NCBI GenBank assembly: GCA_049589355.1
Contig: JBAWAP010000280.1
Span: forward strand, 32-64,031
Reading direction: 5' to 3'
From: Anaerolineae bacterium
GTDB taxonomy: Bacteria; Chloroflexota; Anaerolineae; VGOG01
DNA length: 64,000 nt
A program made the position numbers and the translations under genes. How positions within the stretch are numbered: the first letter of the stretch is position 1; each line of letters begins with the position of its first letter. Below, piece after piece: positions 13,058 through 40,819 of this stretch. Under the pieces are notes generated by a model that was not told the DNA's origin, searched no databases, and worked only from the letters and a program-made list of their open reading frames with translations.

Positions 13058-13180
13058 CTTTTGCTCCCAGCGGCGTTTTAGTCATCCGCAAATCCAGTAT
13101 ATCACAGGAATGGATTCTACACAAAAAGGCAACCATTCGACGGTCGCCTTTGTTAGGAGCTTCGTAACTGCTCAGCCCGT

Positions 13181-13260: not shown

Positions 13261-13321
13261 AGCCTGAGTAGTCACGGAACTTCGATCTTTTGGTTGGACA
13301 GGAAGTCACCCAGAAAACGCA

Positions 13322-14746
13322 TTATCCCGACTTGTGGCCGCTATACGCTTTCAGGATGAGTGGCAGGTAGAGTCTGTATGGTGTAGCCGTCGGCGTGGGG
13401 GTGGGCGTGTGAGTGACGGTCGGCGTGGGGGTGGGTGTGTGGGTAGCCGTCGGCTTTGGCGTATCGGTTGGTGTCGGTGTGTTGGTAGGCGTGGGTGTGG
13501 GCGTGGGGGTGACCGTCGGTGTGGGTGTATAAGTTGGCGTTGCTGTTGCAGTGGGCGTGGGTGTAGGGATAGGCAAGCCGTACTTGCTTACCCCACTATA
13601 GGTACCGAACCAAATGTTCCACTCGTTGTCTGTGGCGATGGCACGGACGTCATCATCTGCCAAACCTGAGTTTAAAGTATCATAGGTCGTCCAGGTGACC
13701 CCATCGAACTCGCTCACCCCGTACCCCTGAGTGCCAAACCACTTGTTCCCTCGCCAGTCTATGGCGATAGCGTTGATATCCTTGTCTCCAGGGTTCCAGA
13801 TTGCCCAGCCGCCATCGAATCGGCTCACCACGGCATTGGCGCAGCCTAGGAAGTCACACCACTCATCATATACGCCCTTACACCCTCCAAACCACTTCAC
13901 ATTGGTGCCCTCTATGGCGATGGCCCGGACATGATCACTCTTCAACTCTGGGTCTGGTATATAATAGGTGGTCCATATCTCTCTTGCCACGTCGAATTTG
14001 CTCACCCCGCATCGTTTTTCTGTAACACCTGCACAACAGGCAGAGGTGCCAATCCACACATTGCCGGAGTTGTCTGCAGCGATGGCATTGACAGCGTCAC
14101 ACACTAGCTGTGAGTTCGAGGTATTATAGGTCCTCCAGTTCCCGCTCCCTCTGTCGAACTTGCTCACTCCGTATCCAAATCCATCGCTCACCTTAGTGCC
14201 GACCCACACATTGCCGAAACTGTCTATGGCGATGGCAGAGATACGAGGAGAGGCTAGCCCTGGGGTCGAGGCATCATAGGTGGTCCAGGTGTCATCGCTC
14301 TTGTTATGGGGGGTGCCGTTGTCATCGAGCACACTCACCCCGCCTTGAGTACCAAACCACTTATTACCTTCCTCATCTATGGCTATGGCAGTGACACGTC
14401 CATTCACCAATCCACCGGGGGTCTTCTCATAGGTCGTCCATCTCTCTCCGTCGAATACACTAACCCCTCTATTAGTACCGAACCATTTGTTTCCCCCTTC
14501 TATAGCGATGGACAGGACGACATTAGTCGCCAATCCCGAGTTGGAGGTGTTGTACGTCGTCCAGGTGCCCTCGTCAGTGCGGTGAGAGTTAGCCGCTTGT
14601 GACGAGGAAGCCAGCCTGCTAGGGAGAGCGGAAGGGAGCCCATGCCCAAGGGTGGTCAAAAGGGCTACCAGAAGAGCAGAGGCTGCCATTAAATACAGCA
14701 GTCTGGTGAGTATGGCGGTTATCCACTTGATATTTAGCCTGGTCAT
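13322..14746 (-). CDS. Secreted beta-propeller repeat protein (two-component-regulator-propeller-like W-x-G-T..G-V-S-x-F-D..WTTY repeats) with C-terminal Pro/Thr-rich low-complexity tail
   Basis: ~9 repeats of ..NKWFGTxxGVSxFDGxxWTTY..; signal/TM at N-terminus; PTPTPT.. tail. Confidence 0.7.
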
Positions 14747-14954
14747 AGAAGTTCTCCTTTTGGAACTCTCTCGTTTGGCACGAAGTGTACTAGAGCGAGG
14801 GTTGCTTTTTCAGGCAATGCTTTCCCTGCGATCTATGTTATCATATATTGGGGAACTTGTCAAGGTTCTCGGGGAATTCTTAAGGTTCGTCTTGGGTGCG
14901 ATGGCCACCCCCTCTTTCCCCCCCAACGTTGGGGGGGAGGAAGGGGGGAGGAGG

Positions 14955-15821
14955 TTAGAGGAAGTACAAGACTGCTATCACAGCCAGCCCCCAAAGGCCA
15001 AGAGCTATCATCATGGGCAGATCACTTAGGAATATCTCCTCGGGAGTCCCGCCTTTGTTCTCGATGTGGATCAAGTAGAGATAGCGGAAGAGGCCGTAGA
15101 GGACAAAGGGGATGGTCAGCATCATGGCGTGGTTGGGCGGCAGGTTCGGTGCGGAGAAGGTGTAGAGAGAATAGGCGATAATCGTGGCCGAGGTAACGAC
15201 GGCGGTCATTTGATCCAGTAGAGGGAGGCTATACTCGTTCAGGCTGGCGCGGTGCTCGTTGGCGTTCTCCGCAAGGAGGATCAGCTCGTGGCGTCGCCTG
15301 CTGAACCCGATGAATAGCGCTACTAACGTGGTGCAGACGTAGAGCCAGGGGGAGATGGGGACGGAGATGACCACCGCCCCGGCTACCGCCCTCAAGACAA
15401 AGCCAGCGGCTACCGTCAGCACGTCAAGGATGACGATGTTCTTGAAGACAAAAGAGTAGACGGTCATGGTCAGGAAGTAGGCCAGGGCAACGAAGCCAAA
15501 GTAGAGGTTTAACAAGAAGGAGAGGGGCAGGGTGACGAGAGGGATCAGCACCCCGGCGGCAATAGCTACCGAAGGCTTCAGTTGCCCTGAGGGCAGGGGG
15601 CGCAGGCGCTTGGTCGGGTGCTGGCGGTCCTTTTCGATATCCACCACGTCATTGATGAGATAAACAGCGCTGGACATAAGGCAGAAGAGGACGAAGGCGG
15701 CAATGGTCTTAAGCAGGGGGACCGGCGTGAACAGCTCTTCGACGAACACCAAAGCCGTGAAGATGAACACGTTCTTGGGCCACTGTTTGGGCCGCATGGT
15801 TTTGAGGAGGCTAATTAACAT
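14955..15821 (-). CDS. UbiA-family prenyltransferase (decaprenyl-phosphate phosphoribosyltransferase-like)
   Basis: MLISLLKTMRPKQWPKNVF.., ..YLINDVVDIEKDRQHPTKRLRPLPSG..; preferred start is the internal ATG at 15821, not 16085. Confidence 0.8.
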   Translation of the reverse strand: MLISLLKTMRPKQWPKNVFIFTALVFVEELFTPVPLLKTIAAFVLFCLMSSAVYLINDVVDIEKDRQHPTKRLRPLPSGQLKPSVAIAAGVLIPLVTLPLSFLLNLYFGFVALAYFLTMTVYSFVFKNIVILDVLTVAAGFVLRAVAGAVVISVPISPWLYVCTTLVALFIGFSRRRHELILLAENANEHRASLNEYSLPLLDQMTAVVTSATIIAYSLYTFSAPNLPPNHAMMLTIPFVLYGLFRYLYLIHIENKGGTPEEIFLSDLPMMIALGLWGLAVIAVLYFL

Positions 15822-15825
15822 TTGT

Positions 15826-15859
15826 CCAGTATCCAATATCCAGTATCCAATATCCAGTG
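15826..15859. repeat. 14-bp tandem repeat CCAGTATCCAATAT x2.4 in the divergent ubiA/tlyA promoter region
   Basis: Seen directly. Confidence 0.8.
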
Positions 15860-15953
15860 CACTAGATGATACCAGATTATGGCGATTTGAGCAAATCGGC
15901 CTGTAGCTCGGTCGCAGCTTGACTTTTCGGTAAGTTACGGCTATCCTATAGCC

Positions 15954-16745
15954 GTGAGGAAAAAGCGTTTGGATGTGCTGCTGGTTGAGAGGGGTCTGGT
16001 CGAGAGCCGGGAGCAAGGCAAACGGCTGATCATGGCCGGCCAGGTCCTGGTAAACGGTCAGGTGGTGGACAAGCCGGGGATGCAAGTAGCCAGCGGCGCG
16101 GACATCTGCCTGCGGGCAAAGCTGCCCTACGTCAGCCGGGGTGGGTTAAAGCTGGAGGCGGCGTTAGACAGTTTCGCCGTTCCGGTGGCTGGGGTGGTGG
16201 CCGCTGATGTGGGGGCTTCCACAGGAGGATTCACCGATTGCCTGTTGCAGCGGGGCGCGAGAAAGGTCTATGCCATTGACGTAGGCTACGGCCAACTGGC
16301 CTGGCGTCTGCGCCAGGACCCGCGGGTGGTGGTCATGGAGCGCATGAACGTGCGCTACCTGGAGAGCCTACCAGAGCCCATTGACCTGGCTACCGTTGAC
16401 GTTTCCTTCATCTCTCTGGAGCTGGTGCTGCCCAGCGTCATAGGCTGGCTCAAGCCAGCGGGTGACATCATCGTCCTTATCAAGCCCCAGTTCGAGGCCG
16501 GGCGAGCAGAAGTAGGCAAGGGGGGAGTGGTGAAGGATCCCGAAGTCCACCGTGCTGTCCTGCGCAGAATCCTCGGTTGGGCCCTGGATCATGGCCTAGC
16601 GGTGCGAGGCCTGATCGCATCGCCACTCAAGGGACCGGCTGGCAATGTGGAATGTCTGGCTCACCTGAGCAAGGGCCGCGAGGAGACGAGCATCGAGATC
16701 GAGGAGGCCATAGCTAAGTGCCTTTTAGGTGCCCGGCACTTTTGA
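15954..16745 (+). CDS. tlyA: TlyA-family rRNA 2'-O-methyltransferase (hemolysin A-like)
   Basis: S4 domain N-terminus + FtsJ-like MTase (..[34 protein letters not shown]..); GTG start. Confidence 0.9.
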
Positions 16746-16832
16746 CCGAAACTTCAAAGGCAATGAGGGCTGGAAAGCATCTGAGTGGCTTGCTCCAGGC
16801 GACATCGGCAAGTGCCGGGCACCTCAGCCGCG

Positions 16833-16905
16833 TTTTGACTAACACCTTGGTTGTGGTGTATACTATGTGAAACGTGAAACGCCCAATCACGCTTCACGCA
16901 TCATG
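16833..16905 (+). promoter_or_regulatory. Candidate sigma70 promoter (TTGACT-18-TATACT) followed by GTGAAACGTGAAACG..CGCTTCACG direct/inverted motif, upstream of the C-N hydrolase gene
   Basis: Seen directly; the GTGAAAC repeat motif also recurs at 53575-53600. Confidence 0.4.
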
Positions 16906-16925
16906 TCAAAAGGAGTCAAGTTGCC

Positions 16926-17738
16926 ATGAAAGAGATCAGGGTGGCTGTGGTTCAGATGAACCCTCGTTTGGCCGAGGTCAGTGAGAACCTCGTGCAGATG
17001 TCCAATTTCGTGGAGAAGATTTGCAGCGAGCAAAAGGTGGACCTGGTTGTGTTTCCCGAGCTGGTCACCACCGGCTACGAGTGCGGGATGCGTTTTACCG
17101 AGCTGGCTGAGCGAGTGCCTGGGCCGACGGTTAACTTGTTGGCCCAGCGGGCTGCCGAGTTCAACACCCATATCGCCTTCGGGATGGCGGCCAAGGAAAG
17201 AGTGGAGAGCATCCTCTACAACGTCGCCATCCTGATCGGCCCCGATGGTGATTTGATCGGCCAATACCACAAGGTGCACCTGCGGGGGGAGGAGCGTTTG
17301 GCCTTCCGCCCCGGCTATCGGTATCCTGTCTTGGAGGCAGAGTTTGGCCAGGTAGGATTTCTAATCAGTTGGGACCTGGCCTTTCCCGAGGTGGCGCGCA
17401 GCTTGGCTTTGGATGGGGCAGGGCTATTGATCGTCTGCGCTAACTGGGCCCAGCCGGATGTGGAGGAGTGGCGCACTTATGTGCTAGCCAGGGCGTACGA
17501 GAACTCGCTCTTCGTGGCGGCAGCTAATCGAGTGGGGGAGGAGTACACCTACTCCTTCTTCGGCGAGAGCATGATCGTGGGCCCTCGGGGTGAGCGGTAC
17601 GCCTCCGTTGAGCAGGAGATCGAGGGCTATGGCGTGGCTCGCATTGACCTGGACAACGTCCGGAAATATCGCGAGGAGCTTCAGCTCTTGCAATACCGCC
17701 AACCGCAGACCTACAGGGCTATCGCCAGGAGGTACTAG
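16926..17738 (+). CDS. Carbon-nitrogen hydrolase family protein (nitrilase/amidase superfamily)
   Basis: ..VFPEL.. Glu, ..HKVHL.. Lys, ..CANWA.. Cys catalytic triad context. Confidence 0.85.
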   Translation: MKEIRVAVVQMNPRLAEVSENLVQMSNFVEKICSEQKVDLVVFPELVTTGYECGMRFTELAERVPGPTVNLLAQRAAEFNTHIAFGMAAKERVESILYNVAILIGPDGDLIGQYHKVHLRGEERLAFRPGYRYPVLEAEFGQVGFLISWDLAFPEVARSLALDGAGLLIVCANWAQPDVEEWRTYVLARAYENSLFVAAANRVGEEYTYSFFGESMIVGPRGERYASVEQEIEGYGVARIDLDNVRKYREELQLLQYRQPQTYRAIARRY

Positions 17739-17919
17739 TGGCAGGTACCGAAATCTCGCTATCAGACACTTTCATGAACGGGGCCCAGAAACCAGGTTTT
17801 TGGCTAGAGAAAGCAACTTCTCACAGCGCAGAGAGCCCCAAAAGCAATGGTCTGTCCACTCAAGTAGGGGAAAAACCTGGTTTCTCATTAACACACTTAT
17901 ATCAACACAGGAGGGAAGC

Positions 17920-28339: not shown

Positions 28340-28420
28340 ACCTATCAGAAGACCGACTTGGTTGAACCAGGTCGGTCTTTTGGTGTGGGTATTGCAAATC
28401 GCGCTCAGGCGTGGTATAAT
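28340..28420 (+). promoter_or_regulatory. Third copy of terminator-like hairpin + consensus promoter TTGCAA-17-TATAAT module, upstream of the DUF499 gene
   Basis: cagaagaccgacttggttgaaccaggtcggtctttt..ttgcaaatcgcgctcaggcgtggtataat. Confidence 0.7.
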
Positions 28421-28537: not shown

Positions 28538-31500
28538 ATGAGGACAATCTTCGACAGTTGTGAACCGCGATCCGAGGTTCTGAAAGGCGAGCTGCGAGAC
28601 GAAATCTTCGCGGCCCGGTTGAGAGATGTGATCATCGGCAAGGCCGATCCTGTCTATCAGGACCCTGTTATCTTCTTTGACAACACTTATCCCACCGAGG
28701 GCCTCAAGCTGCTGCTGGACGAAGGGCTGGGACGGCTGACTGGCCTCAAACCGGCCAGTAACGCCATCATCCGCCTAGAGACGGCCTTTGGCGGCGGCAA
28801 GACCCACAATCTAATCGCTCTCTACCATGCAACGATGGGCTATCGGCCCAGCGCCTCGCTGGTGGACACGGCACTCATTCCAATGCCGGGCTCCATCCAG
28901 GTGGTGGGCGTTGTTGGCTCGGACCTGCAGCCCTCGACGGGACTGGCTCACAACGGGTTCAGAACCTACACCCTCTGGGGTGAGATCGTTGCTCAGTTGA
29001 CCGATGACCAGGACCCCGCTCTGGTAGAACAAAGTGAGCGGGACAAGGTCGCCCCGGGCACCGGGCTGTGGGAGGAGTTGATCGGCGACGAACCCATGCT
29101 GATCATGCTGGACGAGATAGCCCGCCACCTGCGGGCAGCCAAGGCAGTGCCTACCACTACTGGCAAGTCGGACCTGGCTGAGCAGACGGTGGCCTTCCTC
29201 ATGTCCCTCTTCGAGTTCGCGGCCAGCAAGGAGCGAGTGGTGGTAGTCTACACCCTGGCCGATCCTCAAGATGCCTTCGGCAAGGAGACCGAGGAGCTGC
29301 GCCAGGAGCTGGCCGAAGCCAGGCGCGTCTCGGCGCGTCAGGAGCGTGTCATCACTCCTACAGGCGAGACCGAGATCTCGGCCATTGTCACCCACCGCCT
29401 GTTCCGACGCATAGATCACGCTGCTGGCCAGGCCACGGCTGCCGCCTACGCTGCCTACCTCAAGATGGCCCTGGATCAGAGCGCCGATCTACCCTCTCGG
29501 GCCGCCAGGGCCGAGTACGCCCAGGAGATGGTCAACGACTATCCCTTCCACCCCGAGCTACTGACTACCCTCAACCGCAAGACCTCGACCATTCCCAACT
29601 TTCAGAAGACCCGTGGCGCGCTGCGGCTGCTGGCCAGGGTGATCCGCCGCCTGTGGGAGAGGCGCCCGCCGGACGCTTACCTGATTCATCCCTATCACCT
29701 CGATCTGGCGGTGGAGGATATCGCTGGTGACTTGACCAGTCGCCTGGAGCGGCCGGCCTTTAAACAGGTGATCGAAGCGGACATCGTCAGTCCCAAGGCT
29801 GGCTCGCCAGCCCATGCCCAGTTGATTGACGTCTCCTGGCTGGAGGCCGGCAAACCGCCTTATGCTCGCCGCATCGCCACCACCGCCTTCTTGCACAGCC
29901 TGACCCAGGGCATCGCCACCGGAGTGGACCCGGCCGACCTGGCTCTGGCCGTGCTCCAGCCTGACGACGACCCCACCATGGTGGCCAAGGCTGCCGAGCG
30001 ACTGTACGACATCGGCTGGTTCTTCGAGTGGGATGGGCGCCGCTACCGCTTCAAGACCGAGCCGTCACTCAACAAGATTGTGACCGATGAGATGGGGTTG
30101 GTGGGACGTACCAAGGCCAAGGCTGAACTGGATGGGCGTATCCGTCAGGTGTGGAAAACGGGTTATTTCAAGCCGGCCTATTTCCCCAGCGAAGCCGGTG
30201 ACGTGGACGACGACGCCGACAAGCCCAAGTTGGTGGTCATCCACTACGACGCCGCCACCAGCAACGCTGGGGCAGCGGCTCCACCCGACCTGGTGCGCAA
30301 GATCTTCGACCACGCCGGGGCACTGCAGGGTTACCGTATCTATAAGAACAACGTCTTGTTCCTGGTGGCCGACGAAGACCAGGTGGAGAACATGGTGCAG
30401 GTAGCGCAGCGGTATCTGGCTATCGGGCGCATCACTGGCGACGCCGAGCGGATGGGGGAGTTCCACGAGGAGCAGCGCAAGAAGCTGAAGAAGATGGGCG
30501 AGGCCGCCGAGTTGGACGTGCGAGTGGCTATCACCAAAGCCTGTAAGTACCTCTACTATCCCAGTGCCGACGCCCCGCAGAAACACAGCAACCTGGCTCG
30601 CGAGACGCTACCCGCCCAGGATCAGGGTGAAGTCAACCAGGACCAGAGCAACGTGGTGCTGCGGGTGCTGAAGCAGTTGCAGAAGGTCCTGACAGCCGAC
30701 GATTCAACCCTGCCAGCCGCCTTTGTCAAGGCCAAAGCCTGGGATACGGGTCAGGCGAGCATGTCCACCGAGGATATGCGCCGTGCCTTCGCCCGCCGCA
30801 TGGGACTGCGCATCCTATTGGACCTGAACCAGCTCAAGAAGACCGTCCGCAACGGCATCAGCCAGGGCATCTGGGTCTACTACGACACGCCCGAACAGAT
30901 TGGCTACGGGCCGGAATCCCCAAGTCCCATGGTGCAGATCAGCGAGGATGTTCTCCTGTACACGCTGGAGGAAGCCAGACGGCTGGGGCTACGTATCAAA
31001 GGGGAGCGGGAAGAGGGCATTGGCCTTGAGGAGACTTGCCCTATCTGCCACCGGCCCGTCAGCCAGTGCATCTGTGGCCAGGCCTGTCCGGTGTGCGGGC
31101 AGGACCCGTGTGTCTGCGGAGTGAGGATCCGACTCCACGCCGATGGCGCGCCAGCCCAGGCTTTCCAGGGACTTCTCGATCAGTGTCACGACCAGGGTGT
31201 GACCAGCTTGGGCCGCCTCTTCGTGCGCATTGAGGGGAGGGACAGAGAGGGAGCGATGGAGGCCCGGGCCATGGGGCTGGCCATCCCCCAGTTGGGCAAG
31301 GGGCAATTCCGTGTAGAGCAGTCCTTCAACGCCGAGTTCGGCGAGGCCGAGTCACTGAGCCTGGTCTTTAACGGTGCTTGGGACCGCTACAAGCGGGTCA
31401 AGCAATTGACTGACGCCTTCGGCCACGAGGCCAGCAAGCTGTTGGCCAGGACCACTCTGCGGGCCGATTTCCCCGATGGCCTGGCCGTGGACTCAGACCA

Positions 31501-31588
31501 GTTCCAGACCATCCACGAGGTGTTCATCACGCTTGGCTTCGGGCACATGGTACTGGATGCGGAGCCGTGGATAGAAGAACACTCGTAG
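28538..31588 (+). CDS. DUF499-family P-loop ATPase (1016 aa), defence-island type
   Basis: N-terminus MRTIFDSCEPRSEVLKGELRDEIFAA.. and ..ETAFGGGKTHNL.. Walker A typical of DUF499; Cys-rich insert CPICHRPVSQCICGQACPVCGQDPCVCG near C-terminus. Confidence 0.7.
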   Translation: MRTIFDSCEPRSEVLKGELRDEIFAARLRDVIIGKADPVYQDPVIFFDNTYPTEGLKLLLDEGLGRLTGLKPASNAIIRLETAFGGGKTHNLIALYHATMGYRPSASLVDTALIPMPGSIQVVGVVGSDLQPSTGLAHNGFRTYTLWGEIVAQLTDDQDPALVEQSERDKVAPGTGLWEELIGDEPMLIMLDEIARHLRAAKAVPTTTGKSDLAEQTVAFLMSLFEFAASKERVVVVYTLADPQDAFGKETEELRQELAEARRVSARQERVITPTGETEISAIVTHRLFRRIDHAAGQATAAAYAAYLKMALDQSADLPSRAARAEYAQEMVNDYPFHPELLTTLNRKTSTIPNFQKTRGALRLLARVIRRLWERRPPDAYLIHPYHLDLAVEDIAGDLTSRLERPAFKQVIEADIVSPKAGSPAHAQLIDVSWLEAGKPPYARRIATTAFLHSLTQGIATGVDPADLALAVLQPDDDPTMVAKAAERLYDIGWFFEWDGRRYRFKTEPSLNKIVTDEMGLVGRTKAKAELDGRIRQVWKTGYFKPAYFPSEAGDVDDDADKPKLVVIHYDAATSNAGAAAPPDLVRKIFDHAGALQGYRIYKNNVLFLVADEDQVENMVQVAQRYLAIGRITGDAERMGEFHEEQRKKLKKMGEAAELDVRVAITKACKYLYYPSADAPQKHSNLARETLPAQDQGEVNQDQSNVVLRVLKQLQKVLTADDSTLPAAFVKAKAWDTGQASMSTEDMRRAFARRMGLRILLDLNQLKKTVRNGISQGIWVYYDTPEQIGYGPESPSPMVQISEDVLLYTLEEARRLGLRIKGEREEGIGLEETCPICHRPVSQCICGQACPVCGQDPCVCGVRIRLHADGAPAQAFQGLLDQCHDQGVTSLGRLFVRIEGRDREGAMEARAMGLAIPQLGKGQFRVEQSFNAEFGEAESLSLVFNGAWDRYKRVKQLTDAFGHEASKLLARTTLRADFPDGLAVDSDQFQTIHEVFITLGFGHMVLDAEPWIEEHS

Positions 31589-31640
31589 TAACGACTTTAG
31601 CTCGACATTGTTAAATTCGCTGTCGTAGCCAACAAAGGAT

Positions 31641-31852
31641 GTCATTGCGAGTCTTCCATGGCGCGGTGCGCCATCCGTAGGGGGCAGAAACTTGGGCGAG
31701 GTTCGTAGTAACAGCTTTAGCTGTCGTTTGGCAGCAAAGGCGACTAAAGTCGTCTACGAACCAAGTTTCTGAGTAGCGCAGCGAAGCAATCTCCCGCCTT
31801 CAAATGCAAGCAACGGTGGAGATTGCTTCGTCGCTGCGCTCCTCGCAATGAC
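31641..31852. repeat. GTCATTGCGAG-type MITE copy carrying an internal GTTCGTAGTAACAGCTTTAGC/GACTAAAGTCGTCTACGAAC palindrome; surrounded by further GTAGTAACGACTTTAGTC-type repeats (31592, 31893, 31935)
   Basis: Seen directly. Confidence 0.8.
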
Positions 31853-31968
31853 ACTTGGCCTGGAATCTAACAATGTCAAGTTAGTCGTTAATTGTGAACG
31901 ACTGAAGTCGTTACTACGGCGTTGCTACAACTTGTAGTAATGACTTTAGTCGTTCAAGGAGACCAAAT

Positions 31969-32898
31969 GTGAAGGCGCTTTCCATCCGCCAACCCTGGGC
32001 TGAGTTGATCCTCCAGGGACGCAAGACTATCGAACTGCGCACCTGGCCGACGAGCTACCGCGGCCGCATCGCCATCCATGCCAGCCAGACAGTTCGAGAG
32101 GAGGCTTGCATTGCCTATGGTCTGGATCCGGCCAGAATGGTGCGCGGCGCGCTGGTGGGCACGGTGGAACTGGTGGACGTTTTGCCGCTGGACGAGGCGG
32201 CATGGGAGGCTCTGCGCGATCAGCACCTGTCGTTGAGTGACTTCCCCGGCCCGATGTTCGGCTGGCGGCTGGAGGCCCCCCAACGCCTGCCCCAGCCGAT
32301 CCCCATGCGCGGCCGCATGAGCCTGTTTAATGTGGCCGATGAGGTGATAGCGGGAAAAGCACCACATTCCCCCCTCTCCCAGGGTTGGGAGAGGGGGCTA
32401 GGGGGTGAGGGCTTTGCGCCGCCCAAGGTGACCTATAACACGCGGGCCGATGCGCCGGCCTACGACCCTGAAAAACCCTTCGAGCTGTGGGTGGTTCCCT
32501 GCGATGGCGGCGACTATGGCCTGGCGTTGTATCAGTGGCCCGTGGCGGCCAATCGTGAGATCCCAAAGCCCCAGCGACTGGTGGAGCTGGCTGGCGATTC
32601 GCTGCGGGCTGTGGCCGACCACGTGCTGGAAGCGTTGCGCAAGAGTGACTATAAGGTGACCGACCTGTCTCACAACCGCCAAAAGCCCTTCCGCCTGGAC
32701 GAAGAGACGGGCTTGCGCCTGGGCCTGCTCTTTCTGGCTGTCAAACCATTGACCCGCATGGATCGCGTCGAGGCCATCTCTAGCGGCTTACGCACCATGC
32801 CGTCCGAGGAAGCCTACTATTGGTTCAGCAAGTGCACCGCTGAGGCGAGCGCTGTCAATGCCCAGCGGGCGCTGCGAATTTTGTTGGCTGGAGAGTGA
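31969..32898 (+). CDS. ASCH (PUA-like) domain protein with ~190-aa uncharacterized C-terminal region
   Basis: ..LSIRQPWAELILQGRKTIELRTW.. ASCH signature; GTG start with AAGGAGA RBS. Confidence 0.7.
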   Translation: MKALSIRQPWAELILQGRKTIELRTWPTSYRGRIAIHASQTVREEACIAYGLDPARMVRGALVGTVELVDVLPLDEAAWEALRDQHLSLSDFPGPMFGWRLEAPQRLPQPIPMRGRMSLFNVADEVIAGKAPHSPLSQGWERGLGGEGFAPPKVTYNTRADAPAYDPEKPFELWVVPCDGGDYGLALYQWPVAANREIPKPQRLVELAGDSLRAVADHVLEALRKSDYKVTDLSHNRQKPFRLDEETGLRLGLLFLAVKPLTRMDRVEAISSGLRTMPSEEAYYWFSKCTAEASAVNAQRALRILLAGE

Positions 32899-32969: not shown

Positions 32970-33221
32970 ATGTCTGAGCTTTATTCTGTAACCGGCACCC
33001 TGTCGGATGAGCAAACAGTCATACTGGACAGACCTATTCCTCTGCCCATTGGTCGCGTGCGCTTGACCGTTGAAACGTTGCCCGCTGCCAAGCCTGATAG
33101 AACATTCCTCAGCAAGCTGCAGGCAATTCGCCAGGCTCTGCGCGCTAGCGGCTATCGCCCCTGCACCAGAGAAGAAATTGATGCGCAGACTACGCGCCCG
33201 CTATCGCTTCAGAACCCCTGA
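32970..33221 (+). CDS. Hypothetical small protein (83 aa)
   Basis: ORF with RBS GGAGGA; no family recognised. Confidence 0.4.
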   Translation: MSELYSVTGTLSDEQTVILDRPIPLPIGRVRLTVETLPAAKPDRTFLSKLQAIRQALRASGYRPCTREEIDAQTTRPLSLQNP

Positions 33222-33235: not shown

Positions 33236-36200
33236 ATGAACCCACCCCCCACCCTCATCGAATCCTGGCTGCCCTTCGAAGCCATTGGCGCGGAGAGCCA
33301 GCGCGAGCGGGGCGCCAGCAGCGCCTTGCCGCCGCTGTACTTCTTGCACGTCTGGTGGGCGCGCCGCCCGCTGACGGTGAGCCGTGCCGCAGTGCTGGCT
33401 GGCCTCTTGCCAGACTTCCGAAGTCTTGGAGACTTCGGAAGTCTCGACCTGCGCCAGAAGTTCCCTACCGAAGAGGCGTACCGCGCCTGGTTCACCCGCC
33501 TGCTGGGCATCCTGGGTGACCCGGTGACTGGCCGCAAGCTGCTTGCGCGTGCCCGTCAGGTCGGAAAGAAGATCCCCAACCCCTACGAGCACGGCCGGGC
33601 GTTCACGTACAATCCCCCGGCTGAGGAACTGGAAACAATGCTCGACCTGCTGGAGCAGGCATGGGGCACCCGCGAGATCACGGTCATGGATCCCATGGCC
33701 GGCGGAGGCTCCATCCCCTTCGAAGCCCTACGCTATGGCTTCACCGTGCTGGCTGGCGAATTGAACCCGGTCGCCGCGGTTATCCTCAAAGCCACCCTGG
33801 ACTACCCGGCTCGCTTCGGCCCGGCCCTGGCCGACGACATCCGCAGGTGGGGCAAGCGTTGGTACGAGTTGGTCAAACCCAGGCTGGAACCCTACTTCAC
33901 GCCGTTGCCACCAGGGGCTGAAGGCGCTGCCTACCTATGGGCGCGCACCGTCGCCTGCCCGACGACCGGCAAGCTGGTGCCTCTTTCCCCCAACTGGTGG
34001 CTGAGCAAGGGCAGCGACCTCGTGGCTGTGCGCCTGCTCACCAACCCCGCCTGGGACGAGCCACGCTTCGAGATCGTGCGCGGCTCTCCCCTCTCCCTGC
34101 CAGGGAGAGGGGCCGGGGGTGAGGGTTGGACCTTCGACCCCGACGAGGGCACAGTTAGCCGAGGGGTGGGACGCTCTCCCTGGACGGGCGAAGCCATTGA
34201 CGGCGACTACATCAAACGAGAGGCTCAGGCCGGCCGCATGGGGCAGATGCTGTACGCCGTGGCGGTGAAGAAGCCTGGTGGTTTCGACTTCCGCCCACAC
34301 ACAGAGGAGGACCTGGCCGCCGTCCGTCGCGCCGAGGCCGCCTTGGCCGAGAACCTGCCCCGCTGGGAGGCGGCCGGGTTGGTGCCGCGAGAGCCGTTCC
34401 CCGGCGGCAACGACCCCCGCCCACTGCTCTACGGCATGCCCACCTGGGCCGACTTCTTCTCTCCCCGCCAACTCCTCTCCCTGGTCACCTTCCTGGGGGC
34501 GCTGCGGGAGGTGGGTGCGGAGATGCGGCGGGAGATGGATGAGGAGCGGGCCGAGGCGGTGGAGACGTATTTGGCCTTTGCGCTGAACAAATGCCCAAAC
34601 TATAGCTCACGAATGTCGGTATGGCATCCGCTGCGTACCTCAATGGCAAATACCTTCAACCGCCATGACTTTAGCTTTGCTTGGAGTCATGGCGAGTTTG
34701 ATGCTGCTCACAACTTGCTACCCTGGGCTGTCAGCCAGATAGAGGATGCCTACAAAGGCCTGGCCATACTGACTGTTTCTGCCCAGATCCCTCTGTGGGG
34801 CAGTGATGGCGGCTCGCCCGTCGAGCGACTGCAAATCTGGCAGGGCTCAGCCACTGACCTCAGCCAAGTTGAGAGCTGCTCCGTCCACCACATCTGCGTG
34901 GACCCGCCCTACTATGACAACGTCATGTACGCTGAGCTCAGCGACTTCTTCTACGTCTGGCTCAAACGCAGTGTGGGCCACCTGTACCCCGAATTCTTCC
35001 GCGATACTTTGACCAATAAGGACGACGAAGCAGTGGCCAACCCCGCCCGCTTCAAGGCCCTCGCTTCCCCCTCTCCCGCTTCCCCCCTAAGGTTGGGGGG
35101 GACCGTGGGGGGGCGGAGAGGGGGGCAGGGGGTGAGGGACCTGGCCAAACGGGACTACGAACGCAAGATGGCCGCTTGCTTCCGCGAGATGCACCGCACC
35201 TTGCGCGACGACGGCGTGTTGACCGTCATGTTCACCCACAAGCAGGTGGAGGCCTGGGATACCCTGGCCACCGCGCTCATCGGCGCCGGCTTCACCATCA
35301 AAGCCTCCTGGCCTGTCCACACCGAGTCCGAGCACTCCCTGCACCAGGCCCAGAAGAACGCCGCTGCCAGTACCATCCTGCTGGTCTGCCGCAAACGAGC
35401 AGACAAGGAGACAAGGGGACAAGGAGACAGAGAGACAATCTCCGTGTCTCCCCCTCACCTTGTCTCCCCCTCTCAAGTGTGGTGGGATGACATCAAGGGC
35501 CGGGTGCGGCAGGTGGCACGGGAGAAGGCGGCTGAGTTCGCTGAACAGGGTGTCAGCGGGGTGGACCTGTACATCAGCACCTTCGGCCCTGTCCTGTCTG
35601 TCATCTCCGAGCGCTGGCCGGTGCTGACCAGCGAGGTGGATGAAAAGACAGGCCAGCCTAAGCCCCTACGCCCCGAAACCGCCCTTGACCTGGCCCGCGA
35701 GGAGGTCATCGCCCTGCGCAAGCGAGGACTGCTGCTGGGACGGGATATCCAGTTCGACCCCGTCACCGACTGGTACCTGATGGCCTGGGATGCCTTCAAA
35801 GCCGAGGAGTTCCCCGCCGACGAGGCGCGCAAGCTGGCCATCGCCCTGGGGTTGGACATCGAGGAGGACCTGGTGCGGCGCAAGCGGGTCATCGGCAAGA
35901 AGGGCAGCTTTGTGGTGCTGCAACAGCCCAAACACCGCCGCCGCAAGCACCTGGCCGACCCTGAGGCTGTGGTCTTCGACACCCTCCTGGACGCCGCCCA
36001 CGCCGCCATGCTCATCTACCACGAAGATGGGCCACTGGCCTGTGAAAGCTTCCTCAAGCGCACTGGCCTGCTGACCGACAGCACCTTCAAGGCCTGCCTC
36101 CAGGCCCTGCTCAACGCCATCCCCCGCACCCAGATCAAGGGCAGATTCGTCCGCCCCGAAGCCGACCTCCTGGAGCGTCTGCGAATGGCCTTCTTTGAGG

Positions 36201-36265
36201 ATTTGGAGGTGCCGGTGGAGGAGGAGGCGGGGGCGGTCATACAACAGCTAGGGTTGGACATCTAG
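33236..36265 (+). CDS. DUF1156-family adenine-specific DNA methyltransferase-like protein (1009 aa)
   Basis: N-terminus ..LIESWLPFEAIGAESQRER..LHVWWARRPL.. (DUF1156 hallmark); DPPY motif (..HHICVDPPYYDNVMY..) at ~34901. Confidence 0.75.
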   Translation: MNPPPTLIESWLPFEAIGAESQRERGASSALPPLYFLHVWWARRPLTVSRAAVLAGLLPDFRSLGDFGSLDLRQKFPTEEAYRAWFTRLLGILGDPVTGRKLLARARQVGKKIPNPYEHGRAFTYNPPAEELETMLDLLEQAWGTREITVMDPMAGGGSIPFEALRYGFTVLAGELNPVAAVILKATLDYPARFGPALADDIRRWGKRWYELVKPRLEPYFTPLPPGAEGAAYLWARTVACPTTGKLVPLSPNWWLSKGSDLVAVRLLTNPAWDEPRFEIVRGSPLSLPGRGAGGEGWTFDPDEGTVSRGVGRSPWTGEAIDGDYIKREAQAGRMGQMLYAVAVKKPGGFDFRPHTEEDLAAVRRAEAALAENLPRWEAAGLVPREPFPGGNDPRPLLYGMPTWADFFSPRQLLSLVTFLGALREVGAEMRREMDEERAEAVETYLAFALNKCPNYSSRMSVWHPLRTSMANTFNRHDFSFAWSHGEFDAAHNLLPWAVSQIEDAYKGLAILTVSAQIPLWGSDGGSPVERLQIWQGSATDLSQVESCSVHHICVDPPYYDNVMYAELSDFFYVWLKRSVGHLYPEFFRDTLTNKDDEAVANPARFKALASPSPASPLRLGGTVGGRRGGQGVRDLAKRDYERKMAACFREMHRTLRDDGVLTVMFTHKQVEAWDTLATALIGAGFTIKASWPVHTESEHSLHQAQKNAAASTILLVCRKRADKETRGQGDRETISVSPPHLVSPSQVWWDDIKGRVRQVAREKAAEFAEQGVSGVDLYISTFGPVLSVISERWPVLTSEVDEKTGQPKPLRPETALDLAREEVIALRKRGLLLGRDIQFDPVTDWYLMAWDAFKAEEFPADEARKLAIALGLDIEEDLVRRKRVIGKKGSFVVLQQPKHRRRKHLADPEAVVFDTLLDAAHAAMLIYHEDGPLACESFLKRTGLLTDSTFKACLQALLNAIPRTQIKGRFVRPEADLLERLRMAFFEDLEVPVEEEAGAVIQQLGLDI

Positions 36266-36292: not shown

Positions 36293-36667
36293 ATGACAGA
36301 GCATAAGGTGTTGATACCGGACCAGATGTTTGCTGAATTGATGCCGATATCGGAGCAGGAAGACAAAGAAATCAGCGATCTGGTTATAGAAGCATTGCAG
36401 CGGTATCTTTGGGAGGCCAAAGAACGCAAGATTGACCGGGAAATGGAGGCGTACCGTATGATGCACGCCGAACTGAAAGGACGTTTCCTAGGCGAGTACG
36501 TAGCTATTCACAATGGCGAGTTGGTGGATCACGACACTGATCGCCGTGCCCTGTCTCGACGGGTGCGACGAGAATACGGGAACACGGTAGTGCTCATCAC
36601 CCCCGTCGAGGATGAGCCAGAACGGGAGTTCTTGATGCTGAGTCCTCGATTTGAACGAGGTGTATGA
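36293..36667 (+). CDS. Small protein, DUF5678-like C-terminal domain (124 aa)
   Basis: ..YVAIHNGELVDHDTDRRALSRRVRREYGNTVVLI..; overlaps next gene by 4 bp. Confidence 0.45.
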   Translation: MTEHKVLIPDQMFAELMPISEQEDKEISDLVIEALQRYLWEAKERKIDREMEAYRMMHAELKGRFLGEYVAIHNGELVDHDTDRRALSRRVRREYGNTVVLITPVEDEPEREFLMLSPRFERGV

Positions 36668-37050
36668 TGCGATATCCTTACGACAGTCGTTACCATCCTC
36701 CGATGCCGGTTGTTGAGGTTGCTTTAGGCGTATCAGAGGGCGATTTCCCGTTGGAGCCGCTTCCTAGCATCATAGATACCGGCGCAGACATCACGATCGT
36801 GCCCAGGGAATACCTAATGCGCCTGGATGCACCGGTTGTTGCCAGTGGGTATCTGCGCAGCCCGTGGGGAGGCCGATCCAGTGTCAAGATATACGAAGTC
36901 AACGTGCGTGTCGGGGAACATGACCTGTATGGTGTTGAAGTTGCGGGTGAACCAGGCGGGCGCGAAGTGTTGTTGGGACGTAACTTGTTGAACCAGTTGG
37001 ATCTACGACTGGATGGGCCGAATGAGACCGTGGTTGTATTGTCAGGTTAG
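36664..37050 (+). CDS. Retropepsin-like (clan AA) aspartic protease, 128 aa
   Basis: ..SIIDTGADITIVP.. D-T/S-G-A active-site motif. Confidence 0.65.
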   Translation: MMRYPYDSRYHPPMPVVEVALGVSEGDFPLEPLPSIIDTGADITIVPREYLMRLDAPVVASGYLRSPWGGRSSVKIYEVNVRVGEHDLYGVEVAGEPGGREVLLGRNLLNQLDLRLDGPNETVVVLSG

Positions 37051-37078: not shown

Positions 37079-40000
37079 ATGAGACTTCGCGATCATGACT
37101 TCCAGATTTCTTATGGCCCGGCCGATGACCGGCTCCACGACTTCTACATTCCGGCCCTGTCGTGCAGTCTGCGCTACGACCGCACGGCTGGCTTCTTTAG
37201 TAGCAGTGCCTTGGCCGTGGCGGCCGCTGGCGTGGCCCGGCTCATCGCCCAGGGCGGTACCATGCGCCTGCTGGTCGGTGCCCAACTGAGCGAAGCCGAC
37301 GTCCGTGCCATCGAGCGAGGACAGGCGTTGGACGAGGTCGTGGCCGAGCGACTGATCGCAGCCCTCAGCGAGCCCGAGGAAGAAGTCATGCAGCGCCGCC
37401 TGGAGGTGCTGGCCTGGATGGTCGCCGCAGGCAGGCTCCAAATCCGCGTCGTGCTCCCAAAAGGACCCGATGGTCACCCCCTTCCTGCATCCGAGGCCCA
37501 GGACTACTATCACCCCAAAGAGGGCCTCTTCACCGACCACTACGGCGACCAAATTGCCTTCAGCGGCAGCATTAACGAATCGGCCATTGGTTGGCAGCGC
37601 AATTATGAGCAGTTCTCCGTCTACTTCTCGTGGAACGCCACGGCTCCATACCTGGCCCAGGTGCGCTATCGGTTCGAGCATCTGTGGAATGGGCAGGAGC
37701 CGGACTGGATTGCGATGGACGTTCCCGAAGCGGCGCGGCAGCAGTTGCTTCGCTATCGCCCGGCCACGGCTCCTACCTGCGACCCGCTGGAGCGCGAACC
37801 GAAACCCAAGGTGGTCGAGCGTCCGGGCGTTTTCGTGCCTGAATTGCAGCATGAGCGTGTCCTCTTCCAGTTCCTGCGCGATGCTCCCCGTCTCCTCAAC
37901 GCCCGATGGCTGGGCGCGGCAACCAGCGCTGTCACTCCGTGGCCCCACCAGGCGCGCATTGCCGATACCATCGTCACCCGTTTCCCGGAGCGCTTCCTGC
38001 TTTGCGACGAGGTCGGCCTCGGAAAAACCATCGAGGCTGGCCTGGTGCTGCGTCAGCTCCTCTTGTCGGGCTACGTTCGCCGTTGCCTGATCCTGGCCCC
38101 TAAATCCGTCTGCCGCCAATGGCAGGAGGAACTCTACGAGAAGTTCGCCCTCAACGTCCCCTTCTTCGATGGCCACACCTTCCGTGACGTGTTCGGCCAG
38201 GAGCATACGCCGGACGTTCCTAACCCCTGGGACGCCGAGGACGTATTCATCGCCTCCAGCCAACTGGCTAAACGGCGCGAGCGCCAGCCGGATCTGTTGG
38301 CAGCTCGCCCGTGGGATCTGATCATCGTGGACGAGGCGCACCACGCCCGTCGCAAGGACTTTCTGGTTCCCCGCTACCGGCCCAACCGTCTGCTGGAGTT
38401 GCTGATGGGACAGGATGAACAGCCCGGGCTGAAAGATCGCACACTGAGCTTGCTCTTGATGACTGCTACTCCCATGCAGATCCATCCGGTGGAAGTGTGG
38501 GACCTGTTGCGGGTCCTCGGCCTGGGCGGTCGTTGGGGTGCTGACGATAGCAACTTCCTGCGCTTCTTCCAGGAGCTGCGTCGGCCTTTCGACGACGCGG
38601 ATTGGGATTTCGTCTTCGGCATGGTGCGCGATTTCCTGGATACGGGCGGGGAACTCGATCCGACATTTGCCAGTCAGGCCGAGGCCAAACTTGGCCTGGT
38701 GGATTGGCAGCGGTTCAAGATGCTGATATCACCTCAGGAACACGAAGCCAGACCCAAGCAGTTGTTGGCTAAGAATCGTGCCCTGGTGATAGAAATGACC
38801 CGCCGGCATACTCCACTGCGCCGGTATCTCTTTCGCAGCACCCGCCGCCTGCTCCGGGAGTACGTGCAGCGGGGCATTCTCAAGGCCAACGTGCCCCATC
38901 GGGACCCTGAGCCAGTCTGGATTGCGATGCGTGCTGACGAGCAGGATCTCTACCACCGGATCGAGGAGTACATCACCCATTTCTACCGAAAGTATGAGGC
39001 GGAGCGCAAGGGGTTGGGCTTCATTATGACCGTTTACCGGCGCCGGTTGACCAGCAGCTTCTATGCGGTGCGCCGCAGCCTGGAGCGGCGATTGGACTTC
39101 TTACGTGGCCAGACTGCCCCTGGCACGATAGCAGGCTTTGATGAAGACGACCTGGAGCAGGAAGACCTGACCCAGGACATCAGCGAGGAACTGGAAGCAG
39201 AGGAAAGGTCCCGCTTCCGTGGCGAGATCGAATACGTTGAGGATTTCCTGGCCGCGCTGCGCAGCTTGAGTGGCAACGATTCCAAGGTCGAGCAGTTGTT
39301 GGCTGACCTGGAGGAAATCTTCAAACGGCGCGAGACGGTCCTCATTTTCACCCACTACACCGACACGATGGACTTCCTACGCGAACAACTGCGGCAGGCA
39401 TACGGCAGCCAGGTGGCTTGCTATAGCGGACGGGGGGGCGAGGTGTGGAACGGCATCGCCTGGGTGCCGACGACCAAGGAGGAAATCAAGAACGCTTTTC
39501 GCCAAGGCGAGGCGATCAAGATTCTCCTTGGCACCGAGGCGGCCAGCGAGGGGTTGAACCTGCAAACCTGTGGTGTGTTGATCAACTACGACATGCCCTG
39601 GAACCCCATGCGGGTCGAGCAACGGATCGGCCGCATTGACCGCATCGGCCAGATGCACAAAAGGGTCTGGATTCGCCACTATTTCTACGAGGACACGGTG
39701 GAGGCCAGGGTCTACCGAGCGTTGGAGGATCGGATCGGTTGGTTTGAAGAAGTCGTCGGTGAGTTGCAGCCGATCCTTGCTCGAATAGGACAAGCCATCC
39801 AGAGCGCGGCCATGACGCCAGTGGCCGAGCGGGAGCAGGTGTTGACGCGAGAGTTGGAACAGCTACGGGAAGGGGCAGACACCCGACAGGCCGAGGGCCT
39901 TGACTTGGAGCAGTACCTGATCGCTGATGAGCCGTTGCTGGAGTCCACTTCTCCCGTCACCCTGAGCGACCTGGAGCGGGTGCTCACGCGGACATCGTCC

Positions 40001-40819
40001 CTGGTGGATCGTTTCCAACCGCATCCAAAATTCAAGCGGGCCTACTGGCTACGAACCGATGAGGGTGGCGCGGCTGTGACCTTCGACGTGGCCTTGTTTG
40101 ATGCCCACCCCAACACCTTGCGGTTGCTCACGTACGGAAGTGAGCTGCTGACGGCCCTGCTGAAGGCTGTGTCGGAGCCGGCTTCTGGCCCTGAGGGGCG
40201 TGTGCTACGCTGTTGGACGGAAGGCCCCCTGCCTCTTTGCGGCTACTACACCCTTGGCGCCAAGGGTCGCCCGCAGCGGATTGAGCGCCTGGCGGACCTC
40301 GAAGTACTCTATGCTGCGGACCCACATGCGCATTGGTCGGAAGAAGCCATAGCAACAGCGCGCGCCGACTTTCGGCGAGAGGTGGAGACACTGGTGCAGC
40401 GACGGGCGCAGGTGATCGCAGGCCGGCGGCGAGCAGAGCGTCTGGCGCTGGAGGAGCAAGCGCGCCAGACGCTGCTCCAGGCAGCGCTGGTAGAGCTGGC
40501 CATGGGGCAGCAACTCCAACTGTTCGCGGAAGAAGCACTGCCTGTGGCCTTCACCGAGGAAGCGATCACCGGCCTCAAGCGCCATGGTTATCCCTTTGCA
40601 CCATTGCTCAGGCTAGTCAATGTGGATGGCTTGCGGCCCAGCCCCACCGACCCGTTTTACACCGCGGTGCAGGGTAAATCACGAGAAGCCCTCAGGGGCC
40701 ACTTCAACGCGCTGCGGGACGAAGCAGTCCGGCTCTTGGGCCTGCTGGCAAGTGCTCCGGATCAGGAGGAGTCCTCCCAGGACATACAGGATGTCGTTGT
40801 GCAGACATTAGTAGTTTGA
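37079..40819 (+). CDS. PLD-like nuclease domain fused to SNF2-family helicase (1246 aa) with ~370-aa uncharacterized C-terminal region
   Basis: N-terminal HxK(x4)D (..HPKEGLFTD..), ATPase motif I ..LCDEVGLGKTIEAG.., motif II ..IIVDEAHHARR.., helicase-C ..LNLQTCGVLINYDMPWNP..QRIGRIDRIGQ.. Confidence 0.8.
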   Translation: MRLRDHDFQISYGPADDRLHDFYIPALSCSLRYDRTAGFFSSSALAVAAAGVARLIAQGGTMRLLVGAQLSEADVRAIERGQALDEVVAERLIAALSEPEEEVMQRRLEVLAWMVAAGRLQIRVVLPKGPDGHPLPASEAQDYYHPKEGLFTDHYGDQIAFSGSINESAIGWQRNYEQFSVYFSWNATAPYLAQVRYRFEHLWNGQEPDWIAMDVPEAARQQLLRYRPATAPTCDPLEREPKPKVVERPGVFVPELQHERVLFQFLRDAPRLLNARWLGAATSAVTPWPHQARIADTIVTRFPERFLLCDEVGLGKTIEAGLVLRQLLLSGYVRRCLILAPKSVCRQWQEELYEKFALNVPFFDGHTFRDVFGQEHTPDVPNPWDAEDVFIASSQLAKRRERQPDLLAARPWDLIIVDEAHHARRKDFLVPRYRPNRLLELLMGQDEQPGLKDRTLSLLLMTATPMQIHPVEVWDLLRVLGLGGRWGADDSNFLRFFQELRRPFDDADWDFVFGMVRDFLDTGGELDPTFASQAEAKLGLVDWQRFKMLISPQEHEARPKQLLAKNRALVIEMTRRHTPLRRYLFRSTRRLLREYVQRGILKANVPHRDPEPVWIAMRADEQDLYHRIEEYITHFYRKYEAERKGLGFIMTVYRRRLTSSFYAVRRSLERRLDFLRGQTAPGTIAGFDEDDLEQEDLTQDISEELEAEERSRFRGEIEYVEDFLAALRSLSGNDSKVEQLLADLEEIFKRRETVLIFTHYTDTMDFLREQLRQAYGSQVACYSGRGGEVWNGIAWVPTTKEEIKNAFRQGEAIKILLGTEAASEGLNLQTCGVLINYDMPWNPMRVEQRIGRIDRIGQMHKRVWIRHYFYEDTVEARVYRALEDRIGWFEEVVGELQPILARIGQAIQSAAMTPVAEREQVLTRELEQLREGADTRQAEGLDLEQYLIADEPLLESTSPVTLSDLERVLTRTSSLVDRFQPHPKFKRAYWLRTDEGGAAVTFDVALFDAHPNTLRLLTYGSELLTALLKAVSEPASGPEGRVLRCWTEGPLPLCGYYTLGAKGRPQRIERLADLEVLYAADPHAHWSEEAIATARADFRREVETLVQRRAQVIAGRRRAERLALEEQARQTLLQAALVELAMGQQLQLFAEEALPVAFTEEAITGLKRHGYPFAPLLRLVNVDGLRPSPTDPFYTAVQGKSREALRGHFNALRDEAVRLLGLLASAPDQEESSQDIQDVVVQTLVV

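Follow-up and report, generated by a model that had tools for sequence, protein, structure and literature searches.

The gene at positions 31969-32898 of a 64,000-nucleotide (nt) stretch of an Anaerolineae bacterium genome (assembly GCA_049589355.1, contig JBAWAP010000280.1, positions 32 to 64,031; this whole stretch is referred to as the window) codes for the fourth, small subunit of a DUF499-centred, bacteriophage exclusion (BREX)-related, restriction-modification (RM)-like anti-phage system. Its product joins an N-terminal ASCH domain to a C-terminal DUF7680 domain. DUF7680 is the constant subunit of these systems, and the ASCH domain is a Chloroflexota-specific N-terminal accretion. Taken as a whole, we give slightly better than an even chance to the explanation that the protein is the small subunit of a system resembling the Type-2 BREX-related (BR) ones, that its ASCH domain samples modification status, and that a palindromic insertion in the gene is a passenger. 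What appears to be new here, judging from sequence, is the role of DUF7680 as a counterpart of DUF3780 and the retention of catalytic-type residues in the ASCH pocket. The gene and its parts are as follows.

31969..32898, + strand: gene for the ASCH-linker-DUF7680 protein of 309 amino acids (aa), the small subunit of the system (open reading frame (ORF) list, Pfam, homolog alignment, AlphaFold2)
31969..32349, + strand: ASCH domain, a PUA-like beta-barrel, aa 1-127, with the octapeptide G17-R-K19-T-I-E22-L-R24 (Pfam, AlphaFold2, Foldseek, PDB profile search)
32350..32472, + strand: disordered inter-domain linker of variable length, aa 128-168 (AlphaFold2 predicted local distance difference test (pLDDT), homolog alignment)
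32479..32895, + strand: DUF7680 domain, aa 171-309, made up of four beta-strands and helices (Pfam, AlphaFold2 domain model)

The start codon is a GTG located 7 nt downstream of an AAGGAG ribosome-binding site, and it is confirmed by the N-terminus MKALSIRQPW, with which the homologs also begin. The database record (P0001) is annotated "ASCH domain-containing protein". A sequence-only reading of this DNA, made without database searches, had proposed an ORF with an ASCH domain at 31969-32898, and Pfam PF04266 indeed matches aa 4-86 above its cut-off (37.2 bits vs gathering score 21.2, E 5.1e-9). The same reading had described the remainder as ~190 aa of unknown sequence and suggested profile searches and structure prediction for it. 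This half now has a name, because Pfam PF24728 (DUF7680) matches aa 171-308 over its full length (135 bits vs cut-off 24, E 2.6e-39, profile positions 1-141 of 141): it consists of a ~40-aa linker and a catalogued 140-aa domain, for which Foldseek found no structural neighbour and whose function is, as the reading implied, uncharacterised. What it missed is that DUF7680 is the conserved core module and ASCH the lineage-specific addition. PADLOC, NCBIfam, and lax Pfam scans returned no families for the protein besides ASCH and DUF7680. The AlphaFold2 model of the whole protein, built with 66 homologs (mean pLDDT 87.8), shows a confident barrel (aa 1-127, pLDDT 87-98), a floppy linker (pLDDT <50 at aa 135-160), and a confident C-terminal alpha+beta domain. 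Among the homologs, linker lengths range between 12 and 59 aa.

Scanning GTDB, one genome per species, with conserved DUF7680 peptides and mapping the window proteins by tblastn yielded 80 loci. Wherever the contig extends, DUF499 lies directly upstream on the same strand in all 80 (78 of which are scorable for the junction), and contigs that reach far enough also carry the DUF1156 methylase and the PLD-Snf2 helicase downstream. The distance from the DUF499 stop to the start of the DUF7680 gene has a median of 0 nt and does not exceed 60 nt in 60/78 loci; the two genes overlap in 39/78, mostly by a 4-nt ATGA, which indicates translational coupling. The sequence-only reading had called for such a synteny survey and considered that the gene might prove to be an unrelated passenger absent from homologous islands. 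The survey places it in 80 of 80 islands, directly after DUF499. Since the N-terminus also folds as ASCH, as detailed below, the view that the ASCH-DUF7680 gene is integral to the DUF499/DUF1156 system is well supported.

That the gene is unrelated cargo or a regulator (e.g., antitoxin-like or a transcription factor) that landed between the ATPase and the methylase is scarcely credible. These operons do gather cargo: between the DUF7680 gene and the methylase lie 1.7 kb in the median and more than 1 kb in 39 of 65 loci, and the window itself has three small inserted ORFs. Cargo, however, varies by locus, whereas the ASCH-DUF7680-type gene is always present, always first after DUF499, and usually overlaps it. 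The small ORFs of the window have no counterparts in the other loci, as expected for cargo, and a lax Pfam scan and a Foldseek search against the PDB detected no helix-turn-helix or other DNA-binding regulator fold in DUF7680. The synteny thus largely refutes the unrelated-cargo reading.

The two junctions of the gene differ across loci (L001-L080), with the DUF499-to-DUF7680 junction almost never interrupted, unlike the DUF7680-to-DUF1156 junction. Cargo in the latter includes AAA_21/AAA_15 ATPases with DUF4276 or DUF2813, GmrSD, Schlafen-AlbA_2, NB-ARC/TPR proteins, DUF433, and toxin-antitoxin-like genes.

The ASCH-DUF7680 fusion occurs in 64 of the 80 loci, all from Chloroflexota (Anaerolineae, Thermoflexales, Ardenticatenales, and Caldilineaceae), vs 16 loci that encode DUF7680 alone (~145 aa), from Planctomycetota, Desulfobacterota, Dehalococcoidia, and others. 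It is this distribution that identifies DUF7680 as the constant part and ASCH as the accreted one. Near the DUF7680-only loci we looked for separately encoded ASCH or EVE genes and found none except one EVE gene (in L082). Stand-alone DUF7680 also follows DUF499 on 47 plasmids of cyanobacteria, haloarchaea, actinobacteria (Rhodococcus), and rhizobia, where all copies are annotated "hypothetical". A DUF7680 profile search of 1.84 billion representatives gave 546 clusters, and among the best 150 of the 546 matches, which we inspected, ASCH is the sole recurrent fusion partner. Other apparent partners (P0266, P0375, P0307, and others) are not recurrent and seem to be ORFs that were mis-called, fragmentary, or produced by read-through.

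On the Leptolyngbya sp. BL0902 plasmid (L082), the stand-alone EVE-domain gene (8495-8923) lies directly upstream of DUF499, and ~4.7 kb of cargo (12270-17774) lies between DUF7680 and DUF1156, encoding PIN proteins, a macro domain, DUF4433, a MazF/RHH pair, and a four-helix-bundle (23S rRNA IVP) protein. In the haloarchaeal plasmid relatives of DUF7680 (H104-H120), the alignment does not begin until about residue 37-46 of the domain, and the first two beta-strands may be absent or diverged.

DUF7680 seems to correspond to DUF3780, the small protein of previously described systems. In five plasmid systems (L083-L087, from Acinetobacter, Bacillus, Halomonas, Thiodictyon, and Methylocystis), a DUF3780 protein of 195-205 aa occupies the same slot, and where the genes abut (Acinetobacter, Bacillus, and Methylocystis), it likewise overlaps DUF499 by 4 nt. 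DUF3780 has been described as a four-stranded sheet backed by five helices, without detectable homologs (PMC12839542), and the modelled topology of DUF7680 resembles this description: modelled alone with AlphaFold2, the domain forms four strands and six helices (pLDDT 91.9, predicted template modelling score 0.87). It contains the conserved motifs PFxLxEExGxRLGLLFL and EEAYYWFSKC. The DUF3780 model (PF12635) gives no match to the window protein even at E up to 10 (Pfam, NCBIfam). A profile-profile comparison of 174 DUF7680 with 125 DUF3780 sequences by hhalign aligned 68 columns, corresponding to the last three helices (P 0.0077, probability 5%), and 2 of 200 column-shuffled controls attained the real score. 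Reciprocal hmmsearch (E 0.006-0.02) recovered the same EE-x-[YW][YW]-x-[FY]-S-K helix. Three pairs of motifs correspond between DUF7680 and DUF3780: L-x-E-E-x-G-x-R-L-G-L-L and V-D-R-L-L-G-R-E-L-C-V-L, EEAYYWFSK and EERWWL[FY]S, and AQRALRILL and GWRKALRxAL.

The N-terminal domain folds as ASCH, a point on which the sequence-only reading had been prepared to fall. In a Foldseek search of the PDB with the AlphaFold2 model, the top 20 matches are all ASCH proteins, led by the ASCH domain of human TRIP4/ASC-1 (E 1.5e-9, including the double-stranded DNA (dsDNA) complexes 8yfi, 8yfj, and 9kyl) and followed by EOLA1, Thermus TTHA0113, and Zymomonas ASCH (ZmASCH). Searching the PDB with a sequence profile gives the same picture (ASC-1, E 6e-11). 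The GxKxxExR octapeptide is kept as G17-R-K19-T-I-E22-L-R24, and among 118 full-length homologs G17 is conserved in 114, K19 in 106 (with Arg in 10 more), E22 in 99 (with Asp in 17 more), and R24 in all 118. These pocket residues are probably under selection. Four further residues, W26, H37, H86, and W99 (window about 32044-32267), are invariant in 118/118 fused homologs; they fall outside the generic ASCH octapeptide and may form a family-specific pocket or metal site. The domain belongs to the "GKER" ASCH subgroup, and its N-terminal motif QPWAELILQGRKTIELRTW is close to QPWASLLVRGIKRVEGRSW of TRIP4. ASCH proteins are documented as N4-acetylcytidine (ac4C) amidohydrolases and as DNA/RNA binders (bioRxiv 10.64898/2026.02.27.708502; PDB 8yfi/8yfj/9kyl), and according to the same preprint (bioRxiv 10.64898/2026.02.27.708502), members of the GKER subgroup (TthASCH, EOLA1, TRIP4) depend on the Lys and Glu of the motif to deacetylate ac4C.

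In the mechanism that we propose, DUF7680 would dock the small subunit onto an ATPase-centred scanning complex, and the tethered ASCH barrel would contact nucleic acid and sample a base in the conserved GxKxxExR pocket. The barrel would thereby report modification status: the methylase-marked host genome would be spared, and unmarked or foreign-marked DNA would be passed to the HKD-nuclease/Snf2 helicase. By analogy, ASCH is plausible as a modification reader, and the repeated recruitment of PUA-like readers (EVE, ASCH, RAMA) to these systems favours a role in base-modification sensing. The modification-reader hypothesis for such systems is already published (PMC12839542).

Several points weigh against this explanation. 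ASCH proper is not proven to read N6-methyladenine or methylated DNA, and the activities documented for it are ac4C deacylation and general DNA/RNA binding. The domain is near-neutral (isoelectric point (pI) 6.7), so strong non-specific nucleic-acid binding is not obvious. The docking partner of DUF7680 is a guess, because the isolated domain model has no structural neighbour (Foldseek searches of the PDB and of the viral BFVD gave no match with E <0.01 and TM-scores of at most 0.3; the best PDB match has E 0.31) and because its conserved surface is acidic and aromatic. The homology of DUF7680 to DUF3780 is marginally significant, weak but consistent. The large proteins of the locus do not reach the NCBIfam equivalog cut-offs (NF042962, 265/1200 bits; NF042963, 219/1000; NF042964, 380/1100). 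Finally, in the single wet-lab study of an Hma/Type-1 system, the helicase-nuclease alone protected and the methylase had no effect on T4 (PMC11232893), so the RM-like logic is unproven.

Given that the GKER Lys and Glu are catalytic in ASCH enzymes and that several ASCH proteins bind unmodified DNA, a reader, an enzyme, and a simple clamp are all possible functions of the domain. As a modification-independent clamp on DNA or RNA, ASCH would raise the affinity or processivity of the ATPase/helicase complex and leave self/non-self discrimination wholly to the target-recognition domain of the methylase and the sensor domains of the ATPase. Among solved structures, the nearest relatives are TRIP4 ASCH domains bound to ordinary dsDNA (8yfi, 8yfj, 9kyl), several ASCH proteins shift unmodified single-stranded DNA or dsDNA oligonucleotides in electrophoretic mobility shift assays, and most DUF7680/DUF3780 systems function without ASCH, which is therefore dispensable for the core mechanism. 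An electrostatic clamp, however, does not need the strictly conserved catalytic-type pocket, the near-neutral charge of the domain does not favour one, and in other lineages these systems have acquired genuine readers of modified bases (EVE, RAMA). We consider the clamp unlikely.

Quite improbable, in our view, is that ASCH acts as an enzyme, an "eraser" that hydrolyses an N4-acyl-like exocyclic-amine mark on cytosine of phage DNA, RNA, or nucleotides and would thereby strip a protective mark or make a signal, with DUF7680 tethering the activity to the defence complex. The closeness of QPWAELILQGRKTIELRTW to the TRIP4 motif QPWASLLVRGIKRVEGRSW and the need for the motif Lys and Glu in TthASCH, EOLA1, and TRIP4 (bioRxiv 10.64898/2026.02.27.708502) point in this direction. 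So does the conservation profile: K19 is kept in 106/118 homologs and E22 in 99/118 with 17 Asp, a Glu-to-Asp change that EOLA1 tolerates, and the invariant W26, H37, H86, and W99 suggest a specific pocket. Yet a base-flipping reader would equally predict pocket conservation, and Arg replaces K19 in 10/118 homologs. We know of no N4-acylated DNA base that serves phages as an anti-restriction mark. The activity reported in the preprint, which is not peer-reviewed, concerns tRNA and nucleosides. We regard as a long shot the wider proposal that ASCH is either a catalytically active eraser in the defence complex or a sensor of a modified mononucleotide released during infection, comparable to the PUA-Cal-HAD sensor of m6-dAMP described in a recent preprint (bioRxiv 10.64898/2026.01.15.699771). 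If it were true, DUF7680 would be the adaptor through which an RM-like system links its ATPase and nuclease to a hydrolase or sensor of base modifications.

The Chloroflexota fusion ties an orphan small subunit to an assayable domain and offers a handle on the role of that subunit. One question it raises is whether the small subunit brings the ATPase complex a module that senses nucleic acids or bases, and it also raises a possible use of ASCH pocket chemistry (deacylation) in phage defence. For annotation, an "ASCH domain-containing" or "hypothetical" protein beside DUF499 is best read as a core defence subunit.

The operon around the gene comprises the following features.

28392..28420, + strand: candidate sigma-70-like promoter upstream of the operon, TTGCAA-17-TATAAT with extended TG (consensus match only)
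28538..31588, + strand: DUF499/HmaC-like ORC-Cdc6-type AAA+ ATPase, 1016 aa, Walker A GGGKT (Pfam, PADLOC, NCBIfam)
31589..31968, no strand: repeat- and hairpin-rich spacer of 380 nt between the ATPase and ASCH-DUF7680 genes (sequence inspection)
32970..33221, + strand: 83-aa ORF with a strong AAGGAGG ribosome-binding site, window-specific cargo (ORF list)
33236..36265, + strand: DUF1156/HmaB-like amino-methyltransferase, 1009 aa, motif I DPMAGGG, motif IV DPPY (Pfam, PADLOC, motifs)
36293..37050, + strand: two small overlapping cargo genes, DUF5678 (36293-36667) and a retropepsin-like aspartic protease (36664-37050) (Pfam, NCBIfam)
37079..40819, + strand: N-terminal PLD/HKD nuclease and Swi2/Snf2 helicase, 1246 aa, predicted effector (Pfam, NCBIfam, PADLOC, motif)

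The position of the ASCH-DUF7680 gene between a DUF499 and a DUF1156 gene, as proposed from the sequence alone, holds. The ATPase matches Pfam DUF499 (E 2.6e-35), PADLOC HmaC (E 3.3e-96), and NCBIfam DUF499_antiphage (E 1.2e-78, below the equivalog cut-off); the methylase matches Pfam DUF1156 (E 3.6e-16) and PADLOC HmaB (E 2.8e-74); and the helicase matches Pfam SNF2/Helicase_C, NCBIfam phospholipD_antiphage (NF042964, E 3.1e-113), and PADLOC PLD_Helicase (E 1.5e-66). The HKD motif of the helicase reads H145-x-K147...GSIN, with a weak Pfam PLDc_2 match (E 0.0056). With its Walker A, DPPY, and HKD motifs in place, the operon looks intact. It is flanked by housekeeping genes (Pfam), with a 3-hydroxyisobutyrate-dehydrogenase-like gene to its left and MoeA/MobB to its right, and the GC content of the island (59-64%) shows no clear difference from the flanks.

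The window is atypical in its 380-nt spacer, where the genes of homologous loci mostly abut or overlap. Several copies of GTAGTAAYGACTTYAGTCGT, which occur in both orientations, lie in the spacer, as does a long hairpin near 31775-31840 (gcgaagcaatctcc...ggagattgcttcg). An Rfam scan of 28-41 kb gave sub-threshold matches of miRNA models on hairpins, which we judged to be chance, and nothing else, including in the spacer. No Pfam or NCBIfam family matches the 83-aa ORF, and the 80 related loci lack a counterpart of it. The DUF5678 gene and the protease gene, whose product belongs to clan AA, sit between the methylase and helicase genes, and we did not find the pair there in any of the 80 related loci. 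DUF5678 recurs among the cargo ORFs of four other loci.

The ASCH-DUF7680 gene and the methylase gene contain related palindromic elements.

32366..32416, + strand: GC-rich palindromic mini-insertion of 51 nt, in frame, reading HSPLSQGWERGLGGEGFA with its flanking residues (DNA alignment)
34084..34132, + strand: second in-frame copy of the element family, in the methylase gene, SPLSLPGRGAGGEGW (sequence comparison)
35063..35140, + strand: third, longer in-frame copy of the element family, in the methylase gene (sequence comparison)

The insertion in the ASCH-DUF7680 gene had been noticed from the sequence alone and is real, in frame, and palindromic; its bounds were given as 32369-32416, and DNA alignment with four close homologs (L001/L002/L059/L004) moves them to 32366-32416, or 17 codons. 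Its sequence, ATTCCCCCCTCTCCCAGGGTTGGGAGAGGGGGCTAGGGGGTGAGGGCTTTG, folds into a hairpin with a perfect 12-bp stem (-40 kcal/mol, z -2.7). The insertion lies wholly inside the disordered linker and is absent from the nearest homolog (P0002, 292 aa) and from others; the linkers of other homologs bear independent insertions at the same spot (e.g., L003). Both copies in the methylase gene are likewise absent from most homologs, which have small insertions of their own at the same loop positions. Within the 64 kb, GGGGTGAGGG occurs at three sites only (0.29 expected), all on the + strand and within 2.8 kb of the operon. Across the 80 loci, elements of the GGGGTGAGGG type number 9 in operon genes vs 4 elsewhere, which are small numbers. 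We found no evidence that the mini-insertion contributes to function and regard it as a tolerated passenger in the linker and not as a functional part. Rickettsia palindromic elements and similar elements are small palindromic repeats inserted in frame in ORFs. Like them, the window element is short, GC-rich, hairpin-forming, and multi-copy, and its in-frame insertions fall in surface or disordered regions and leave the gene unbroken, but its sequence family and host phylum differ, and only three copies are visible in 64 kb.

Among known defence systems, the locus most resembles those that a 2026 Nucleic Acids Research study (PMC12839542) named "Type-2 BREX-related" (BR) systems. That study reports DUF499-centred systems in about 3,600 prokaryotic taxa, finds DUF3780 in 98% of the Type-2 BR systems, observes fusions of the small subunit to "reader" modules of the ASCH/PUA or RAMA kind in some of them, and proposes that DUF3780 may scan DNA for modification marks. 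The corresponding "anti-phage-associated" set of NCBI and PADLOC comprises four genes: DUF499 (NF042962), DUF3780, DUF1156 (NF042963), and the PLD-helicase (NF042964). The window shares the gene order of ATPase, small protein, amino-methyltransferase, and Swi2/Snf2 helicase with N-terminal HKD nuclease, and the small gene is coupled to DUF499 in both canonical and DUF7680 loci. The Type-2 BR helicase carries its N-terminal HKD nuclease in place of TUDOR, and the window helicase does likewise, which makes the locus Type-2-like. The window methylase, with its DPPY and DPMAGGG motifs, is a predicted N6-type enzyme (DUF1156/COG1743), as expected for a Type-2 BR system. Its small subunit, however, is DUF7680 in place of DUF3780, with marginal similarity between the two, and its large proteins fall far below the NCBIfam cut-offs; for these reasons the locus is a divergent lineage, sister to the canonical Type-2 system.

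In PADLOC, the window ATPase and methylase are matched best by Hma models (Hma comprises HmaA helicase, HmaB methylase, and HmaC ATPase), and the large proteins score slightly better with the Hma models than with the DUF499/DUF1156 models of PADLOC. Hma was tested in Halomonas meridiana (PMC11232893), and its operons, like the DUF7680 loci, are prone to insertion of defence genes. It consists of three genes without a described small subunit, whereas the window system has an obligatory fourth gene. HmaA carries a C-terminal PD-(D/E)XK nuclease, whereas the window helicase has an N-terminal PLD/HKD nuclease (a C-terminal one was not specifically searched for). HmaA matches the window helicase with E 1.2e-61, and the PLD_Helicase, BrxH, and DrmD models score equally well or better (PADLOC).

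The ASCH domain itself shares its fold and GxKxxExR motif with the ASC-1/TRIP4-type ASCH proteins (human TRIP4, EOLA1, Thermus TTHA0113), its best PDB matches. These have roles in transcription, ribosome quality control, or ac4C turnover, and none is fused to DUF7680 or placed in a defence operon, whereas the window domain is both. In genomic context it resembles the EVE, YTH, SRA, and RAMA reader modules of restriction and RM-like systems, with which it also shares the PUA-like barrel superfamily. Stand-alone EVE genes occur next to operons of a COG1743 methylase, DUF499, and a Swi2/Snf2-nuclease in archaea (Bell et al. 2020, PMC7641849); there the EVE protein stands alone, whereas the window domain is an ASCH fused to the small subunit.

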